A stretch of 32,784 nt of DNA from a virus (lineage: Duplodnaviria > Heunggongvirae > Uroviricota > Caudoviricetes). Location of the stretch: IMG/VR virus record IMGVR_UViG_3300045988_138410, positions 1 to 32,784 of that record; one strand, written 5' to 3'. The translations under genes and the position numbers were made by a program. Below, piece by piece: positions 6,669 to 25,559 of this stretch (position 1 is its first letter; every line of letters begins with the position of its first letter). Under the pieces are notes generated by a model. The model searched no databases and was not told the origin of the DNA. It saw nothing but the letters and a program-made list of their open reading frames with translations.

Positions 6669-8627
6669 TTACGCCGTACATTTCACCAGACCGCGGTGAT
6701 CAACTGGCGCGACACCGGCGTCAATACGCACTTTCGTTGTCACGCCATCCACACTGAAGCCCTCCATCTGATCAATATATGGCGTATCCACACCGTTGAG
6801 ATAAGCCACTTCAATCGTATCGGAGCCTTTTGACGCAGCCAGGTAGAAGGTGGTCTGGCTGTTATCATCAAGACGAGGCTCTGCAATAACGGTCGCAAAA
6901 TCTTTCACCGGGTTAATAATACCGGCGTTAATGTCAGCCCCCTTGACACTTGAGGAGCGAATGACCTGGTTAGCAACAGACTCCATCGCCGTCGGTACCA
7001 GTACGAACGCAGGACGAATATTCAGATGACGCTCCCCCTCTTTCTGAACACGCATCAACTGGCGGGCTTTATCCAGCGATGCCACGTCCATTGCAGCGCC
7101 CTCCAGTACGTTTGCATGTTTCGCTTTATCGAACAGACTTACATTATCTGTGGAGATTTTCGGGTTAGACGTCAGAATGGCATAAACCAGATCGGCAATA
7201 GTGGATTTCGCCGCACGGCCCAGCTTCATCGGGACATCGGTCAGCATATTCAGATCATCATTGATAATGGCCTGACGGGTGATACTGAACAGCTCGCCAT
7301 AGGTCGCCAGTGCAATAGTGGCCTGTTTATCTCCGGTGGTGACGTATTTATATTCCGCCCCTTCACGCACCTGACGCAGAGCACTGAAGCCCCCCATACC
7401 CACGCGATGGGCAATTTTAAAATCAGACAACTGACCTTTCCGCGTCCACTGTTCATAGGTTTCAGGGGCATCTTCCCAGCCCTGCAGAATGGCTTTGTTC
7501 GCAACATCCAGCAGAATATTACCGAAGTCAGACGTACTGTGTGTGAACGCCGCACCGACCATCTGCATCGGGTTATAACCGGAAACCCCAATACCCCGTT
7601 CAGTCAGTGACATACGGGCATATTCACGCAGGGTCATCCCGTTGTAGACATTATCACGTTCGGTTTTTTCAAATCCGGCACGCGCCATCAGCGCCTGGCG
7701 GATCCCGTCCCCCACAAAATTACCGTTACCGGCATAAATATGAGCCGGGGTATTTTTATTGGATGGCGTGGACTCGCGCCCCATCTCGTTCAACAGCTTT
7801 TCGCGGGCCTGCTCCAGCGAACATTCAGGATCGGCAAGACACTGAGCCTGCAGCGTCTGATAACGCCCGCCAAACATGGCAAACAAATCATTAATACCGT
7901 TTACACGCGCTTTTTGCTCTGCCAGTACCTGCGCACGGATACTGTTTTCATCCACCACGGGTGCTGCTGCCTGCACTGGCGTCCGGGAGGCTACAGGTTC
8001 ATTATCCTGTACGCGTGGAGCACTGTTGCGTGGCGGAGTAATCATGTTTCGAATGGATTCCGGCATCTTTTTAAATTCCTCTGTACGTTTTGACTGAATA
8101 CATGCCATTGCCTTAACGGCTGGCGTTACCTGATCAGCAAATCCATGTGCCAGACATTCGGCACCGGACATCCAGGTCTCATCCGCCAGCATGGCAGCAA
8201 TTTCATCGGTGGTTTTCCCGGTTTTCTGTGCATAAGCGGGTAACAGAACCGCCTCAACCTTATCGAGCAGGTCGGCATAGGTGCGCATGTCTTCCGCATC
8301 ACCGCCCGTAAAGCCAAATGGTTTATGAATCATCATGAAGGTGTTTTCCGGCATAATGACCGGGTTTCCCACCATCGCAATGACCGACGCCATTGACGCC
8401 GCCACACCGTCGACATAAACGGTAATGGACGCACCATGTGTTTTCAGCGCATTAAAAATGGCGATGCCTTCAAAGACATCGCCACCCGGTGAATTAATAT
8501 GGAGATTAATGTGGGTGATATCGCCCAGTGCATTCAGATCACTGATAAACTGCTTCGCTGTAACACCCCAGAAACCAATCTCGTCATAAATATAAATATC
8601 CGCGTCACTCTGGTGACCAGCCTGCAT
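6669..8627 (-). CDS. Prohead protease (ClpP/S49-like) fused to major capsid protein
   Basis: N-terminus ADIYIYDEIGFWGV...INSPGGDVFEG is protease-like; C-terminal ~350 aa capsid-like; start chosen at ATG 8627, 14 nt after portal stop. Confidence 0.8.
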   Translation of the reverse strand: MQAGHQSDADIYIYDEIGFWGVTAKQFISDLNALGDITHINLHINSPGGDVFEGIAIFNALKTHGASITVYVDGVAASMASVIAMVGNPVIMPENTFMMIHKPFGFTGGDAEDMRTYADLLDKVEAVLLPAYAQKTGKTTDEIAAMLADETWMSGAECLAHGFADQVTPAVKAMACIQSKRTEEFKKMPESIRNMITPPRNSAPRVQDNEPVASRTPVQAAAPVVDENSIRAQVLAEQKARVNGINDLFAMFGGRYQTLQAQCLADPECSLEQAREKLLNEMGRESTPSNKNTPAHIYAGNGNFVGDGIRQALMARAGFEKTERDNVYNGMTLREYARMSLTERGIGVSGYNPMQMVGAAFTHSTSDFGNILLDVANKAILQGWEDAPETYEQWTRKGQLSDFKIAHRVGMGGFSALRQVREGAEYKYVTTGDKQATIALATYGELFSITRQAIINDDLNMLTDVPMKLGRAAKSTIADLVYAILTSNPKISTDNVSLFDKAKHANVLEGAAMDVASLDKARQLMRVQKEGERHLNIRPAFVLVPTAMESVANQVIRSSSVKGADINAGIINPVKDFATVIAEPRLDDNSQTTFYLAASKGSDTIEVAYLNGVDTPYIDQMEGFSVDGVTTKVRIDAGVAPVDHRGLVKCTA

Positions 8628-17372: not shown

Positions 17373-18125
17373 TTATCTTGTCACCTTTCTCAATTGTATC
17401 TCTGCATATGCTTCTTCCTGCCAGCACTTTGTAACCAGTTTATCAATGACATCTGCATATCCTTTGTACCACTGATAATCCGTCAGGTCTGGTACCAGCT
17501 TCTGGACATGAAGCCGCGCCAGTGTGGTTGGTAAACGGCTAAACCGGTTTCCATTGCAACGCCCACAAACCTTATAAACAGGCGTGCCATGAAGCCGGGT
17601 TCTTTTTTCATCCAGGACAATACCTTTACCCTTACACCCTCTGCACGCTGTGCTGACTTCTCCCTTACCATGACAATGCTGACACAGTTCCTTCACCCAC
17701 TCTTCCTTGATAACAGATTCCCCGCTTCTGGAGTGTTTTACCACCTCGCGCAATACATCATGAAATCCAGTACCAGCACAATGCTCACAGCGAGCCTTAC
17801 TTGCCGCAGACCTGGAATAATCAGCAAAGGCAAAATTCACAAGGTAAGGAATGATCTGTAGCCGGGTTTCTTCACTCAATTTGTTCAATGTCGGGTTATC
17901 CAGTGCCATCGCGTAATTGAACAGACCTTCAATCGCAAACTGAGGATCCTGAACACCAACTTTTGCCAGGAATAAGGCAAACCCAAGCGGTGCTTTCGAC
18001 TGCACCATCCCCTGCGCAGCCATTACATCCGTAATTGTTAAACCACCAGAGCCTGTCGCCGGTGCGTCATCGCTCAATTTTGGAGATTTTGTGGAGTAAT
18101 ATTTCGGTAAGGCTTCAAGGTTCAT
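17373..18125 (-). CDS. Q: Late antiterminator Q (QuuD/QuuQ-type, multiple CxxC motifs)
   Basis: 250 aa with CEHCAGTG, CQHCHGKG, CRGCKGKG, CGRCNG; located immediately upstream of pR'/tR'. Confidence 0.8.
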   Translation of the reverse strand: MNLEALPKYYSTKSPKLSDDAPATGSGGLTITDVMAAQGMVQSKAPLGFALFLAKVGVQDPQFAIEGLFNYAMALDNPTLNKLSEETRLQIIPYLVNFAFADYSRSAASKARCEHCAGTGFHDVLREVVKHSRSGESVIKEEWVKELCQHCHGKGEVSTACRGCKGKGIVLDEKRTRLHGTPVYKVCGRCNGNRFSRLPTTLARLHVQKLVPDLTDYQWYKGYADVIDKLVTKCWQEEAYAEIQLRKVTR

Positions 18126-19964: not shown

Positions 19965-20354
19965 TCAGGCGGCTGCACCCGCCGTTTTCTCGTACTTACT
20001 GATAGTGATCTCGACCCTCCCTTCCGGGATAACCGGTCCCCACTCCACCAGCATTCTTTTCACCTGACTGTCGTCTTCCCACACACCCGCGTGGGTCAGG
20101 GCGTCAAACAGCGCCTTGTTATAGTTGTCCAGATCGCGGATCCGGTTATCCGGAGGAAACAACACGATCTCCACTGAAGCAGGTGCCGACGTTGGTTTTG
20201 GCAGACGACGTAACTGCTCAACTATTGCTGCACACGCCGCGCTCTGGAATTTGCGCCCCGCCGCGCTTATCAGGCTCTTACCTGCAAACGCCCCTTTGTT
20301 GGGGTGTCGCCAGTACGTGTTCACGCTGGGCGGAAAAGGCAGTATTAGCTTCAT
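19965..20354 (-). CDS. rusA: Holliday junction resolvase RusA
   Basis: PPSVNTYW...RDLDNYNKALFDALTHAGVWEDDSQV matches recalled RusA. Confidence 0.9.
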   Translation of the reverse strand: MKLILPFPPSVNTYWRHPNKGAFAGKSLISAAGRKFQSAACAAIVEQLRRLPKPTSAPASVEIVLFPPDNRIRDLDNYNKALFDALTHAGVWEDDSQVKRMLVEWGPVIPEGRVEITISKYEKTAGAAA

Positions 20355-20677
20355 ACTTTCAGCTCCCTCTCATGTAACCAGTGGGCTGCACGCAGCCTGG
20401 CGTTTTCCTCACCGGCAAGCAGTGCGCGGATAATCCCGACCGCCTCGCTGTCGTCGTCCTTCACCGCGGTATGAAGAGTGATACCCCGGGCCACGCCACG
20501 CTTTATCGTGATGACGCCTTTTTTCTCCAGTGCGCGAAGATGCTCCACCGCTGCATTCACTGAACGGTATCCCAGCATGGTTGCCACCTCCTGATTGGTT
20601 GGCGGGAAGCCACGTTCTTTCTGGTAAGAAATCAGCATATCCAGCACCTGCTGCTGGCATTGAGTTAACGTCGTCAT
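20351..20677 (-). CDS. LexA DNA-binding-domain-only protein (no S24 peptidase domain)
   Basis: LTQCQQQVLDMLISYQKERGFPPTNQEVATMLGYRSVNAAVEHLRALEKKGVI parallels LexA N-terminal domain; only 108 aa. Confidence 0.6.
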   Translation of the reverse strand: MTTLTQCQQQVLDMLISYQKERGFPPTNQEVATMLGYRSVNAAVEHLRALEKKGVITIKRGVARGITLHTAVKDDDSEAVGIIRALLAGEENARLRAAHWLHERELKV

Positions 20678-21327
20678 GCAGCCATCTCCCTGACCAGTTT
20701 TTCCGCCTGCTGGCGAACCTGCGCCAGAAAGGCCTCACCACATGCCTCAAGTTCATCGCGCCCGATGTAGCTGATTGCCGGTCCCTTCCAGGTCTTGTCG
20801 AAAACAGCAATAGCACCAGCTAAGAAAGCGCCTGTCGGCACCTGCTTCTCATCCTTTGGGATAAACCAGGCAGGCAGTTCAAAACCAATACGCCCGCGAA
20901 TAAAAGCAATATGATCTGCATCTTCCGGCCACCACACTTCGCTGGTGGCAGCTTTGATCAGGAAAACATAGCGACCGCCTTTATCACGCATGGCACTGGC
21001 ATGCTTCATGATGTAACGCATGCCGGTGATGTATTGCCCCTCATGCTGACTGGCGCGGCTGTATGGGGGATTACCAAAGGCAGCACCTTTAAGCTCCGCA
21101 AGACGTTCTGACCAGTCATGTGCCAGCGCGTTGTCTTCCGCCGTGTAATACGCGGCACATTTGGCGTTATCACCGTCAGTGAACAGATCCAGAACAAACG
21201 GACCAAACAGGGTGTTAATTCCCCAGAAAATGTTATCCGGCGTGCGCCACTGATCGCCCACTTCCTTCAGTTCATGGGCTGGTTTGTTCCGCAGTTCCAC
21301 CAGCGCCTGGCAATATTTATTACTCAT
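20674..21327 (-). CDS. Phage Dam-family N6-adenine DNA methyltransferase (NPPY)
   Basis: AFGNPPYS motif; start chosen at ATG 21327 (MSNKYCQ) overlapping upstream stop. Confidence 0.8.
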   Translation of the reverse strand: MSNKYCQALVELRNKPAHELKEVGDQWRTPDNIFWGINTLFGPFVLDLFTDGDNAKCAAYYTAEDNALAHDWSERLAELKGAAFGNPPYSRASQHEGQYITGMRYIMKHASAMRDKGGRYVFLIKAATSEVWWPEDADHIAFIRGRIGFELPAWFIPKDEKQVPTGAFLAGAIAVFDKTWKGPAISYIGRDELEACGEAFLAQVRQQAEKLVREMAA

Positions 21328-21821
21328 TAAGCCCCCACGTAATTCCCTGACAGATACCACTCTTCACCTGATGCAGCCCGCTTATTGCTTTTCCGTAAAC
21401 ACCGTTCACGACGCGCCAGAAAATTATTTCGTTCTGGCTGGGAGTGGCTTTCACGGAATGCCGCCATCCACACCGTTGCAGCACGACGGTATAAGCCCCT
21501 AGACTCCAGTTCTTCCGCCTGGCGGGTCAGGCACAAAATCACCCGCGGGTCGTTAGTGCCGACATAGAAATTGCGCACAGGTCTGGTTTCACGAACTGGT
21601 TGTGGTTCCGGCTCCTGCGCTCTCTCAGTCAGGCGTGGGAAATGTCTGCGTGTATCTCCTTCACAACGGTGAGCCACACGCCCACTCTGACGTAACTTGC
21701 TTGCTGACTGCAGAACGCGCTGCCGTGAGTAACCTGCAAAAGCATCCGCAATATCTCCGGAAGTACACCCCGGATGGGCTTCAATGAATTTCTGAACTTC
21801 ATTCAAAAGACTCATGATCAC
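21327..21821 (-). CDS. PerC-family-like transcriptional regulator
   Basis: C-terminal AEELESRGLYRRAATVWMAAF resembles recalled PerC/Pch signature; ATGA coupling to upstream gene. Confidence 0.45.
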   Translation of the reverse strand: MIMSLLNEVQKFIEAHPGCTSGDIADAFAGYSRQRVLQSASKLRQSGRVAHRCEGDTRRHFPRLTERAQEPEPQPVRETRPVRNFYVGTNDPRVILCLTRQAEELESRGLYRRAATVWMAAFRESHSQPERNNFLARRERCLRKSNKRAASGEEWYLSGNYVGA

Positions 21822-22636
21822 CCCCTGAATCCTGCCGGGATCTGGCTGTAGTCCACGTTGTCGTAACTGGCTTTGAAGTACGGGTCCTCACGTCTGGCTG
21901 CAGATACCGCAGGAACTTCCCAGGATTCTTCGAAATGACGATCCGGACCAAAGAACGTGACAGCCTGTTTCACAAATTGTGTGCCGCTGTTACCCATCGC
22001 AGATACCCAGCCCGCATAGCGTTTCACACCTTCCAGCATGGTTTCGGGGTTTACCCCCTCATTCAAACGGGCTTTCCAGGCTTTGAAGGCTGCAGATTTT
22101 GAATTGCCACCAGCACGTTTGGGATATGCCAGCCATGCCTGCTCAAACTCCGGAGAGTATTCCGGTCGGTTTGAACGAACTCGCACAGACTCATCAGCAG
22201 ATGCACCAACAGCTATTGGTTCATTGACTGGTTCTTTGACTGGTTCAAAAGAGTGACTGGTTCTGGGTGAATCTCCTGCACTACCCCCTGGTGCAACTCC
22301 TGCACTACCTGGTGAATTTGTTGCACCAGATAGTGAATTATTTGCACTACCCCCTAGTGAATCTCCTGCACCATCAAGATGAAGAAGATAGATATTACTT
22401 GAGTTACCTTTTTCACCTTTCCGGGTGACTTTTTTTACCAGCCCGGACTCACAGAGGGCCGCAATATGATTCATCACAGAACGTTTGCTAATCTCGCACT
22501 GATCAGCGATATGCTGATAGCTGGGCCAGCACTCGCCCTGATCGCTGGCATTATCAGCCAGCTTGATCAGAACCAGTTTTCGCAATGGATTACCCACTCG
22601 AATTTTCATCGCTTTAACCATCAGCTCCATACTCAT
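21818..22636 (-). CDS. Replication initiation protein (O-like, N-terminal HTH, central low-complexity linker encoded by iterons)
   Basis: N-terminal winged-HTH-like segment; Gly/Ser/Ala linker; C-terminal EFEQAWLAYPKR motif; contains direct repeats. Confidence 0.7.
   Translation of the reverse strand: MSMELMVKAMKIRVGNPLRKLVLIKLADNASDQGECWPSYQHIADQCEISKRSVMNHIAALCESGLVKKVTRKGEKGNSSNIYLLHLDGAGDSLGGSANNSLSGATNSPGSAGVAPGGSAGDSPRTSHSFEPVKEPVNEPIAVGASADESVRVRSNRPEYSPEFEQAWLAYPKRAGGNSKSAAFKAWKARLNEGVNPETMLEGVKRYAGWVSAMGNSGTQFVKQAVTFFGPDRHFEESWEVPAVSAARREDPYFKASYDNVDYSQIPAGFRG
22265..22374. repeat. Iteron array (five ~21-24 bp direct repeats) next to an AT-rich stretch: candidate replication origin
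   Basis: Repeats GGTGAATCTCCTGCACTACCCCCT / GGTGCAACTCCTGCACTACCT / GGTGAATTTGTTGCACCAGATA / GTGAATTATTTGCACTACCCCCT / AGTGAATCTCCTGCACCATC, then AT-rich 22375-22440. Confidence 0.7.
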
Positions 22637-22857
22637 GCTGCACCTCCGAGATGCTTCATGTTTTTTCCGGAGCGAAACGCTATAAGCGGCATACTGACGC
22701 GGTAACTACGGCCCAGCGGTTCACAAATCACCTTCTGACATTCACGGTCAACCAGGCTAACACGTAGAACATGCCCTGCAGGTGTGGTGTACCACTGACC
22801 CGGACGAGGACAACGGAAAGTCTGATTGGTAAACCGTTTGAAAATATTCCGGATCAT
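22633..22857 (-). CDS. Small hypothetical protein, Cys-containing, translationally coupled on both sides
   Basis: ATGA overlaps with both upstream and downstream genes. Confidence 0.45.
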   Translation of the reverse strand: MIRNIFKRFTNQTFRCPRPGQWYTTPAGHVLRVSLVDRECQKVICEPLGRSYRVSMPLIAFRSGKNMKHLGGAA

Positions 22858-24002
22858 TTGCGCCCCCTTACCTCTGAAGGGTTCAGCGACAAATTTATGA
22901 GGCAGGCCAGTGCCGAAGCATCATTAATATAGTCATACAAGCTAACAGCCAGCGGAGATTCGGCTTTTGCCAACATAGGATAAAGCTGCTGCAGCCAGAC
23001 CTGATGAATTGATGAAATGTAGGAATAGAGAACGCTGGCGTTATGTGCAACGTCGCTCAGTACAGAGGGATTTGAAAGCTGTTTCTCCATCTGGTTAAAG
23101 GCATTGATGTATGCCTCTTTGAACTGGGCAGCACGTTTACCCATGAAACCCATAGCAAGAAACGCAAAGCCGTCGCGGGTTATTTGGTAGCAAGGAAGTT
23201 TGCGACCTGTGCAATCAGTGTAATCACTCACCGAAAAATTGCGGGCAGTGAATGATGCTGAGCATTCAAGCGTGCGGATCTTTTTCAGTACATCGCCATG
23301 ACGTTTGGAGAAGAAGTTGGCAACAGCCAGGGATGAAGTAACAGCCTGACCATCAACGATGGCAATTTCAGGTTGAGTGAGGGTTGGGATCGTAGCCATG
23401 ATGGCAGCCTCCGATAACAGTGAATTACCTTCACCACCGGAAACGCCAATTTCGCTGGTGGTGAACTGAACGGGGTTGGCGTAACCGGCGTTATCGGAAA
23501 CCGGCGCACCTTTCGGTGCCCCCGTCCAGCCCACCATAATTTGGGTGTGCACAGACGCAGACGATAAAAAAGACGCTGGCGCGTCATATATCGCCGATAA
23601 CATTTCCAGGACGCCAATCCCGGCACCCGCTTTATAAGGTGCCTGAACAGTGTAACGTCCCGGAATGGCAGAATCAATGTGCTGGTGGTCCTTCACACTC
23701 AACAAAATCACGCCTGAATTTCCACAAAGGACTAAAGCACTCATGCGGGTAGTCTTTGCGAAGATAGATAACGCGCTGTGTTTCTGGCTCCCAACGAATA
23801 ACATGGACATAAAGCCCTCTTCCATCACGAAACCAGCGGTTAAGTTCCTGCACAACTCGCCCCCCACAGTCAGGTAAAGTTCTCTGTGGTTACTTACAGC
23901 CAGGTGATTTGGTAATCTGCATTCATGCCGTAACAACAGGTGTTCAGCGACACTGACCACCAGCTGTTGCGACAAACGGTTATTTGCCGTTAAACTGTTC
24001 AT
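22854..24002 (-). CDS. Rha-domain regulatory protein with ~200-aa N-terminal extension
   Basis: Central QPEIAIVDGQAVTSSLAVANFFSKRHGDVLKKIRTL..YQITRDGFAFLAMGF resembles Rha family; ATGA coupling to upstream gene supports long start. Confidence 0.55.
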   Translation of the reverse strand: MNSLTANNRLSQQLVVSVAEHLLLRHECRLPNHLAVSNHRELYLTVGGELCRNLTAGFVMEEGFMSMLFVGSQKHSALSIFAKTTRMSALVLCGNSGVILLSVKDHQHIDSAIPGRYTVQAPYKAGAGIGVLEMLSAIYDAPASFLSSASVHTQIMVGWTGAPKGAPVSDNAGYANPVQFTTSEIGVSGGEGNSLLSEAAIMATIPTLTQPEIAIVDGQAVTSSLAVANFFSKRHGDVLKKIRTLECSASFTARNFSVSDYTDCTGRKLPCYQITRDGFAFLAMGFMGKRAAQFKEAYINAFNQMEKQLSNPSVLSDVAHNASVLYSYISSIHQVWLQQLYPMLAKAESPLAVSLYDYINDASALACLINLSLNPSEVRGRK

Positions 24003-24884: not shown

Positions 24885-25559
24885 ATGAAAACAGTCCATG
24901 ACATCCGGCGGTCTAACGCCAGAAAACTGAGAGATGGTGTTGGCGGGAATTCTTCCTTTGCCACCATGATTGATCGCGAGCCAACCCAGACCAGCAGGTT
25001 TATGGGAGATGGTGCTACTAAAAATATCGGTGACAGCATGGCACGGCACATCGAAAAATGTTTCGACCTGCCTGTCGGATGGCTTGATCAAGAACACCAG
25101 ACAACAAACATCACAAAAAAACCTGATGTTTCAATTACTAACAAACAAATAACGTTAGTCCCTGTCATATCATGGGTACAGGCCGGAGCATGGAAAGAAG
25201 TTGGCTATTCTGAGGTTGATTTGAGCACAGCAGAAACTTATCCCTGCCCTGTACCCTGTGGCGAAATGACTTATATCTTGCGGGTGATTGGTGATTCAAT
25301 GATTGATGAGTACCGCCCAGGAGACATGATTTTTGTAGATCCTGAAGTCCCTGCCTGCCACGGTGACGACGTTATTGCATTGATGCACGATACGGGCGAA
25401 ACCACCTTTAAGCGGTTGATAGAAGATGGAACACAGCGTTACCTCAAAGCATTAAACCCAAACTGGCCTGAACCTTACATTAAGATCAACGGTAATTGCT
25501 CTATAATTGGTACAGTAATTTTCTCAGGAAAACCAAGAAGATACAAAATAAAGGCCTAA
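24885..25559 (+). CDS. cI: CI-type prophage repressor with LexA-like S24 autopeptidase domain
   Basis: C-terminal VQAGAW (Ala-Gly cleavage site) ...VIGDSM...K Ser-Lys dyad pattern; divergent from cro-like gene. Confidence 0.85.
   Translation: MKTVHDIRRSNARKLRDGVGGNSSFATMIDREPTQTSRFMGDGATKNIGDSMARHIEKCFDLPVGWLDQEHQTTNITKKPDVSITNKQITLVPVISWVQAGAWKEVGYSEVDLSTAETYPCPVPCGEMTYILRVIGDSMIDEYRPGDMIFVDPEVPACHGDDVIALMHDTGETTFKRLIEDGTQRYLKALNPNWPEPYIKINGNCSIIGTVIFSGKPRRYKIKA

Follow-up and report, generated by a model that had tools for sequence, protein, structure and literature searches.

Five tandem repeats in the middle of a phage replication initiator gene are probably iterons, bound by dimers of the initiator's N-terminal domain (N-domain), and together with an adjoining element built of GAAYCAGTCA 10-mers they probably constitute the origin of a lambdoid prophage of the SfV/ST64B/'Eru6' type. 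The gene lies in a 32,784-nucleotide (nt) stretch of a Caudoviricetes genome (IMG/VR record IMGVR_UViG_3300045988_138410), which we refer to in its entirety as the window. Origin activity is suggested by the anatomy of the region and by analogy with known systems. An earlier note on this DNA had proposed an iteron-type origin at 22,265–22,440, an interpretation that our results indicate was right at its core and is partly supported overall.

Probable iterons in the initiator gene

The repeats are carried by a gene on the minus strand (21,818–22,636; 272 amino acids [aa]) that was identified from its open reading frame, its Pfam and PHROG matches, and its nucleotide identity to known phages. 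It matched Pfam HTH_36 (PF13730; E = 1.8e-11, 44.1 bits against a cut-off of 25, aa 17–67) and PHROG 270, "replication initiation protein" (E = 6.7e-89). Where PHROG uses a label such as "O-like," it names a function and not a family. The gene is 98% identical at the nucleotide level to SfV orf39, cdtI orf46, its counterparts in Stx2c phages, and the 'Eru6' HTH protein gene of Stx2a_WGPS2; its identity to the ST64B gene sb42 is 88%. Stx2a_WGPS2 serves as type phage for the 'Eru6' replication region (PMC8951638). The 'Eru6', SfV, and ST64B entries are the same gene, annotated at the protein level only as a replication or HTH_36 protein. A precomputed PF13730 annotation was found on 120/120 homologues among the matches listed. 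Family membership (HTH_36, PHROG, and phage homologues) therefore identifies the gene as a phage replication initiator. The Pfam scan gave no match to Phage_rep_O (PF04492) or RepA_N (PF06970) and placed DnaD_N below threshold, and no NCBIfam family was matched.

The initiator consists of a winged-helix N-domain (aa 1–85; coding region 22,382–22,636, minus strand), a linker (aa ∼90–155), a helical C-terminal domain (C-domain; aa ∼157–230), and the tail SQIPAGFRG. The N-domain was recognized from its predicted secondary structure (H16–28, H39–46, H50–62, E66–72, E78–84) and from Foldseek, and the presumed recognition helix lies around ISKRSVMNHI. The predicted local distance difference test score of the AlphaFold2 model was 78–90 over aa 1–70 and below 50 over aa 90–155, and the repeat-encoded stretch with what follows it (aa 90–155) is predicted to be disordered. 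Foldseek returned only generic winged helices (E ≥ 0.007) and nothing informative for the C-domain; the resemblances to DnaD-N (2v79) and to a staphylococcal Rep–DNA complex (5kbj) were nonsignificant (E of 0.03–0.04) and limited to the fold level. A Protein Data Bank sequence search with the initiator found nothing meaningful.

A search with find_repeats detected five copies of 21 nt at 22,263–22,373, with start-to-start spacings of 24, 21, 21, and 24. Tandem Repeats Finder reported arrays at 22,267–22,371 (period 24, 4.6 copies, score 70) and 22,301–22,351 (period 21, score 60), the two top-scoring tandem arrays in the window; the third-ranked array (22,217–22,247; period 12, score 55) falls within the same gene. 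Self-alignment of 22,260–22,380 gave peaks at lags of 21, 24, 45, and 66, with a top value of 0.64 versus a maximum of 0.51 over 2000 shuffles. The repeats described in the earlier note are real, as are the periodicity it predicted, its plus-strand core TGCAC(T/C)A, and its placement of the array in the mid-gene part that encodes a Gly/Ser/Ala-rich stretch between the winged helix and the C-domain.

Read on the minus (gene) strand, every copy contains GTGCA-N5-TKCAC, an imperfect inverted repeat with the half-site GTGMA. There are five exact matches to this pattern within 105 bp versus 0.18 expected in the whole 32.8-kb window, a count equaled in 0/100 shuffles. The cores, all on the minus strand and located by the repeat search and core pattern count, are GTGCAGGAGATTCAC (iteron 1; 22,357–22,371), GTGCAAATAATTCAC (iteron 2; 22,333–22,347), GTGCAACAAATTCAC (iteron 3; 22,312–22,326), and GTGCAGGAGTTGCAC (iteron 4, a perfect GTGCA/TGCAC palindrome; 22,291–22,305). 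Iteron 5 (22,267–22,281), located by the repeat search and by comparison with relatives, has the same core as iteron 1 and stands at a fixed distance from the conserved element described below (CAC-CC-AGAACC). All spacings are divisible by three, so that the copies are in-frame; the encoded peptides are GAGDSLG, GSANNSLS, GATNSPG, SAGVAPG, and GSAGDSPR, and the five cores (22,267–22,371) code for aa 88–124, between the winged helix and the C-domain. The units are contiguous, coding, and 67%–81% alike. Inside the cores, synonymous positions are identical among copies and the nonsynonymous positions of the N5 spacer vary.

A CRISPR array, already dismissed in the earlier note, was ruled out, as the units are contiguous, in-frame, and coding and have no unique spacers. 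The only structured RNA match (Rfam) was mir-875, which reached 22.9 bits (gathering score, 84) through chance similarity to the palindromes. Far from the array, an exact palindrome of the iteron type occurs at 945–959 (GTGCATTACCTGCAC; chance level, 0.18 expected per window), and a core copy with one mismatch occurs at 23,420–23,434 within the Rha/Ash gene (GTGAATTACCTTCAC; also chance level). These two sites could be extra initiator sites.

We compared 398 cores, drawn from 83 distinct genes whose recognition helix is of the same type as that of the window's initiator. Conservation was highest in the two half-sites and lower in the central N5 and in the flanks, and spacings were 21–24 bp. 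In 34 of the 398 cores the DNA was translated in another frame, giving the peptide VVQEIHQ in place of GSAGDSP, with spacings of 22 or 23 bp bringing the frame back. Iteron number ranged from one to nine among proteins at least 88% identical (cdtI has eight units), which implies that the length of the linker peptide is unconstrained. Each relative had its own repeat array at the same position in the gene, with a core that differed with the presumed recognition helix. The helix ISKRSVMN was paired with GTGCA-N5-TKCAC in 59/60 genes, VSRSTVKS and IGRSTVK (xxRSTVK) with GGGCA-N5-TGCCC, CSKSAVR with TRTGC-N9-GCAYA, MSRKTAIG with GTGTA-N5-TACAC, IDRSTVRK with TGTAGGC-N5-GCCTACA, and CDKRTAMR (Vibrio) with GTGAC-N5-GTCAC. 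Symmetry, frame independence, copy number, and helix-type correspondence all indicate that selection on the iterons acts on the DNA and not on the peptide. The sequence comparisons support the view that the repeats are DNA-level protein-binding sites within a phage initiator gene.

A conserved element beside the iterons

Next to the last iteron we found a conserved DNA element, CCAGAACCAGTCACTCTTTTGAACCAGTCAAAGAACCAGTCAATGAACCA (22,217–22,266, minus strand), which encodes RTSHSFEPVKEPVNEP and was delimited by 10-mer counts and comparison with relatives. The iterons fall inside the interval proposed by the earlier note; their conserved partner lies on the other side of them, beyond that interval, and is conserved by sequence and not by AT content. 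In gene direction after the last core, the element reads CC-AGAACCAGTCAC-TCTTTT-GAACCAGTCAA-A-GAACCAGTCAA-T-GAACCA. It holds exact GAACCAGTCA 10-mers at 22,254–22,263, 22,237–22,246, and 22,225–22,234 (three matches versus 0.17 expected per window) plus a partial fourth, and it is coupled to the last iteron at a fixed distance.

The element was identical, synonymous sites included, in 10/10 phage homologues picked by protein similarity, whose hosts were E. coli, Salmonella, Klebsiella, Aeromonas, Vibrio, and Aggregatibacter. A pattern scan recovered it in at least 120 viral contigs, always within this type of initiator gene, at a locus GC of 0.38–0.62 and a gene GC at third codon positions (GC3) of 0.28–0.80. 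An unbiased sample was drawn from one genome per species, with loci found by N-domain peptide patterns alone (80 loci). The 29-nt core of the element was present with at most six mismatches in 69 of these loci, variants of the element were present in the other intact genes, and at least two exact 10-mers were found in 68 of the 76 intact genes. Across the 11 element codons of 69 genes from different species, departures from the consensus were synonymous in six cases versus nonsynonymous in 152; the strongly conserved N-domain that these genes encode showed complete scrambling of synonymous codons. Third positions of the element were 0.9–1.0 conserved, and conservation ended sharply at +35. Shewanella has a spacer 2 nt shorter, which places the first 10-mer in another frame (HPEPVT...) with the DNA unchanged. 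A distant Pseudomonas phage keeps only GAACC, repeated every ∼12 nt at the same offset from the last core. Judged from these alignments, the element is under strict nucleotide-level selection. The GC of the element held steady at 0.45–0.48 while gene GC spanned 0.40 to 0.60, suggesting that it is conserved as a sequence and not as an easily melted tract.

In Shewanella profunda (L197; gene positions ∼400–440) both 10-mers carry an identical change, giving GAATCTATCA twice. This concerted change points to a single co-evolving factor that reads both copies.

The element was not present in the initiators of D96a, phiP27, and Tritos, which have the same C-domain and a different N-domain family, and it therefore belongs with the N-domain family of the window's initiator and not with the C-domain. 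Several C-domain types follow this one N-domain family. In the natural chimeras P0063 and P0072, other N-domain-plus-iteron modules are joined to the window's C-domain exactly at the element, which marks a point of modular exchange.

We tentatively raise the idea, possible but on balance doubtful, that the run of 10-mers (∼40 bp) is an undescribed sequence-specific origin core, a fixed "loading pad," in thousands of prophages and phage-plasmids across Gammaproteobacteria (named groups: Enterobacterales, Pseudomonas, Vibrionaceae, Aeromonas, Shewanella, Pasteurellaceae, and Halomonadaceae). The reader of such a pad might be the invariant part of the N-domain family or else a host replication protein that is conserved; the pad would lie between interchangeable specificity iterons and interchangeable domains that recruit the helicase. 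Three other roles for the element were rejected by eye: an antisense promoter (TTGACT on the opposite strand has no acceptable −10 hexamer), a frameshift site (no slippery heptamer is present, and the TTT codon is variable), and an IHF site (the consensus is not fitted).

Comparison with known origins and rival explanations

The iterons of lambda O, P22 gene 18, and phage L gene 18 lie in mid-gene (PMC8022706; PMC7466680), and the window shares several features with these origins. As in the O genes of lambda, P22, L, and Stx phages, mid-gene iterons code for a linker that joins a DNA-binding N-domain to a helicase-recruiting C-domain (PMC7466680; PMC8022706). With five dyad-symmetric cores coding for the interdomain linker, the window has at least the four that characterize the lambda type. 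The sites are likewise spaced about two helical turns apart, iteron number varies and alters protein length (four versus six in lambda and Stx phages), iteron sequence differs by initiator type, and the iterons are followed, on their C-terminal side, by a common region, to which the conserved element would be the parallel. Unlike lambda, the initiator belongs to HTH_36 and not to Phage_rep_O, no P, DnaC-like, or DnaB-like partner gene lies downstream, and the neighboring conserved region is a GAAYCAGTCA repeat with ∼46% GC and not an AT-rich tract. By analogy, the system would work like lambda ori and O, but protein family, partner gene, and AT-rich tract all place it outside the lambda O family. 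The earlier note had called the gene O-like and likened the region to lambda ori; the likeness survives for function and layout and fails for these three features.

The AT-rich stretch that the same note placed beside the repeats also stands in part. A patch with a GC of ∼0.35 (22,374–22,440), seen in the GC profile and compared among relatives, encodes the wing KKVTRKGEKGNSSNIYLLHL; GC is 0.35 at 22,360–22,439 versus ∼0.5 around it, and in gene direction the patch precedes the repeats, toward the N-terminal (5′) end. It codes for the Lys/Asn-rich wing of the winged helix. In 179 relatives its GC tracked that of the gene, from 0.30 in AT-rich genes to 0.54 in GC-rich genes, so the patch is mostly compositional, and a conserved unwinding element was ruled out, although the patch may help melting in this phage. 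Inside it, a terminator-like hairpin with a T-run (TCACCTTTCCGGGTGA CTTTTTTTAC; 22,413–22,428, plus strand) lies antisense to the initiator; such hairpins were no more frequent than in shuffled sequence.

Plasmid systems offer further comparisons. In pSK41, the four Rep boxes bound by Rep sit in the middle of rep and encode a dispensable linker (PMC5703833); the linker of the window's initiator may be dispensable too. The chimeric pPR9 Rep of Staphylococcus, with a PF13730 N-domain of phage origin and an internal origin region of its own, supports autonomous replication (PMC5703833). Both resemble the window's initiator in combining a winged-helix N-domain with semi-palindromic repeats central in its own gene (PMC5703833; PMC7145576). 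Their C-domains are exchangeable and host- or partner-specific; here exchangeability is seen in the chimeras. The pSK41-type systems differ from the window's phage in being Gram-positive plasmids of the RepA_N family (PF06970), the C-domain of pSK41 (DnaG-binding) is unrelated to that of the window's initiator, and no counterpart of the GAAYCAGTCA element has been described for them. The iteron theta plasmids RK2, F, R6K, and pPS10 likewise have multiple phased initiator sites beside short direct repeats, and their Rep can also contact single-stranded DNA (PMC4081077). Their iterons, however, are mostly direct repeats bound by Rep monomers outside rep, accompanied by DnaA boxes and an AT-rich unwinding element, whereas those of the window are quasi-palindromes inside the gene without DnaA boxes.

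If the repeats and the element form an origin, initiation might proceed as follows. Upon induction, the early rightward transcript would yield the initiator, and N-domain dimers would fill the five GTGMA-N5-TKCAC sites, about two helical turns apart, to build a nucleoprotein complex resembling the lambda O-some. This complex would engage the 10-mer element, held at its fixed distance from the last iteron, either directly or via strand opening. The element might be a second initiator site, duplex or single-stranded, or a site for a conserved host factor, and it would be the place where helicase loading starts. The C-domain and tail would recruit host DnaB–DnaC (and primase), a route that we propose because the phage encodes no helicase, loader, or primase.

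Several points weigh against an initiator-bound origin. Our literature search found no binding assay, ori cloning, or mapped replication start for this family. Through binding within its own gene, the initiator could be regulating itself, whether in addition to starting replication or in place of it. The correspondence between helix and core could in part reflect physical linkage, since the helix and the array are only ∼100 nt apart. The near-identical prophage genes P0042, P0028, and P0039 carry only one or two cores or have no element; they may be defective, or few sites may suffice. Among these three genes and the chimeras P0063 and P0072, one near-identical gene has lost the conserved element. 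There is no conserved AT-rich unwinding tract, the conserved element having ∼46% GC, and no DnaA box lies near the array, the only matches to TTWTNCACA in the window being at 8227 and 15,143. On the other side, we counted in favor of an origin the presence of the module in phage-sized circular "plasmids" and in Arsenophonus phage-plasmids.

The repeats might instead be operators through which the initiator or another regulator controls transcription or translation of the initiator operon, with replication beginning elsewhere. Quasi-palindromic sites for a dimeric winged-helix protein are typical of operators, the sites lie within a transcribed gene, and neither a conserved AT-rich tract nor a DnaA box accompanies them. 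However, five phased sites placed where an initiator gene codes for its linker reproduce the origin layout of lambda, P22, and pSK41, no other array of comparable score exists in the window, and the region contains no promoter-like site (none resembling a sigma-70 promoter within 21,700–22,900). An operator would also have no need of the strongly conserved element to which the array is always coupled at a fixed distance, and we regard this explanation as unlikely. A different protein might occupy the sites, as several DNA-binding proteins are encoded next door (Rha/Ash, the 74-aa, PerC-like, and LexA-like proteins), a host factor could also be involved, and binding by the initiator is itself a prediction. 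But those neighbors are missing at many homologous loci (Vibrio, Pseudomonas, Aggregatibacter) that keep the array beside the N-domain, and the core type follows the helix type of the initiator, which makes another binding protein very improbable.

Two further explanations dispense with a binding role for the repeats or with a direct role in initiation. A low-complexity Gly/Ser/Ala linker made by slippage, with the DNA periodicity a by-product of the repeated peptide, would fit the in-frame units, the disordered Gly/Ser/Ala-rich peptide, and the variable copy number typical of slippage-prone linkers. It is largely refuted by the 34/398 cases in which the 15-nt core is kept in a second frame with a different peptide. 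The cores are also palindromic, their synonymous positions are invariant among copies while nonsynonymous positions of N5 vary, and N-domain types differ in palindrome and not in amino-acid composition; we find this explanation scarcely credible. The exact junction of the chimeras P0063 and P0072 at the element, and the occurrence of the C-domain with unrelated N-domains (phiP27, Tritos, D96a), could mean that the array and element are mainly a recombination joint for the exchange of N- and C-domain modules, with no direct role in initiation. Yet when the same C-domain is joined to another N-domain family the element is missing, and it is therefore not a general boundary sequence; crossover at the element could equally be a consequence of its conservation. 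Letter-for-letter conservation from Pasteurellaceae to Pseudomonas, in genes that are saturated at their remaining synonymous sites and span a GC3 of 0.28 to 0.80, requires purifying selection on a function. A recombination joint is, in our judgment, highly unlikely.

Gene neighborhood, distribution, and significance

The initiator lies between a cI-like repressor gene (24,885–25,559) and Q (17,373–18,125), in the order cI-like, CII-like, Rha/Ash, 74-aa protein, initiator, and PerC-like, with Dam, a LexA DNA-binding domain protein, RusA, KilA-N, and DUF968 between the PerC-like gene and Q. In the Pfam scan and gene order, nothing encoding a helicase, a loader, or a primase appeared from the cI-like gene to Q, and we coined the name "initiator-solo" module for this arrangement. 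The gene directly after the initiator (21,327–21,821, minus strand) encodes a PerC/ANR-like regulator, a homologue of YfdN (yfdN in E. coli RefSeq), and occupies the usual helicase-loader place of lambdoid phages. A 108-aa protein farther on (20,351–20,677, minus strand) has a LexA DNA-binding domain only (PF01726; E = 2.9e-19), without an S24 peptidase domain. It is kept downstream of the initiator in SfV, cdtI, and Ayreon, and it could be a noncleavable LexA-like repressor.

Comparison with E. coli DnaT drew attention to the C-terminal tail of the initiator (SQIPAGFRG; 21,818–21,844, minus strand). It shares 8/9 residues with the DnaT end SQIPPGFRG, and both stand at the extreme C terminus. 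The initiator of phage Tritos, which has an unrelated N-domain, ends in EIPPGFRG. Speculatively, the tail may mimic the DnaT primosome adaptor to recruit the host helicase in a module without a loader; a review of replication restart contained nothing on the DnaT C terminus and did not further support recruitment through the tail.

The initiator module is very common. The gene was at least 80% covered in 897 of 5426 complete E. coli genomes, with parts of it in 2718, and the protein had 5428 clusters at E ≤ 1e-5. A 44.6-kb circular E. coli "plasmid" with no typed replicon (L219; NZ_CP148393.1) proved to be an SfV/e14-like phage genome with the module. More than 10 extrachromosomal elements of Arsenophonus nasoniae (28–104 kb; e.g., L220, pArsFIN11) carry the same N-domain family along with a DnaC-like ATPase gene, GAAYCAGTCA 10-mers, and GTGACA-type repeats of their own.

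The iteron origin would be a further case of a known design, and the 10-mer element is apparently a new part. In the papers on the Eru types of Shiga-toxin phages the word "iteron" is absent and no origin is described, and the database records of SfV and Ayreon have no rep_origin feature. A full-text literature search for the core, the 10-mer, and the RTSHSFEPV peptide returned only unrelated primer matches, and one for iterons in ST64B, cdtI, mEp460, phiP27, and Stx2c returned nothing relevant. We found no published description of the 10-mer element in a search that lay outside the SfV and ST64B genome papers and a 2006 review of phage replication modules, so a prior description is possible.

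Toxin production by Shiga-toxin phages is driven by their replication, of which 'Eru6' is one type, and the core motif, its phasing, and the helix-to-site pairs allow direct tests of replication control in phages of the Stx2c, SfV, and ST64B types. A defined origin would also be a marker for replicon typing and for predicting incompatibility among prophages and phage-plasmids. The natural pairs of helix and site are material for studying DNA recognition by winged helices, and variants with one to nine iterons, or with the element lost, are natural tests of the number of sites needed. The 10-mer element is a clean case of a coding stretch selected for its nucleotides and not its amino acids, and it may mark the step at which a phage initiator without a helicase or loader hands over to the helicase machinery of the host.

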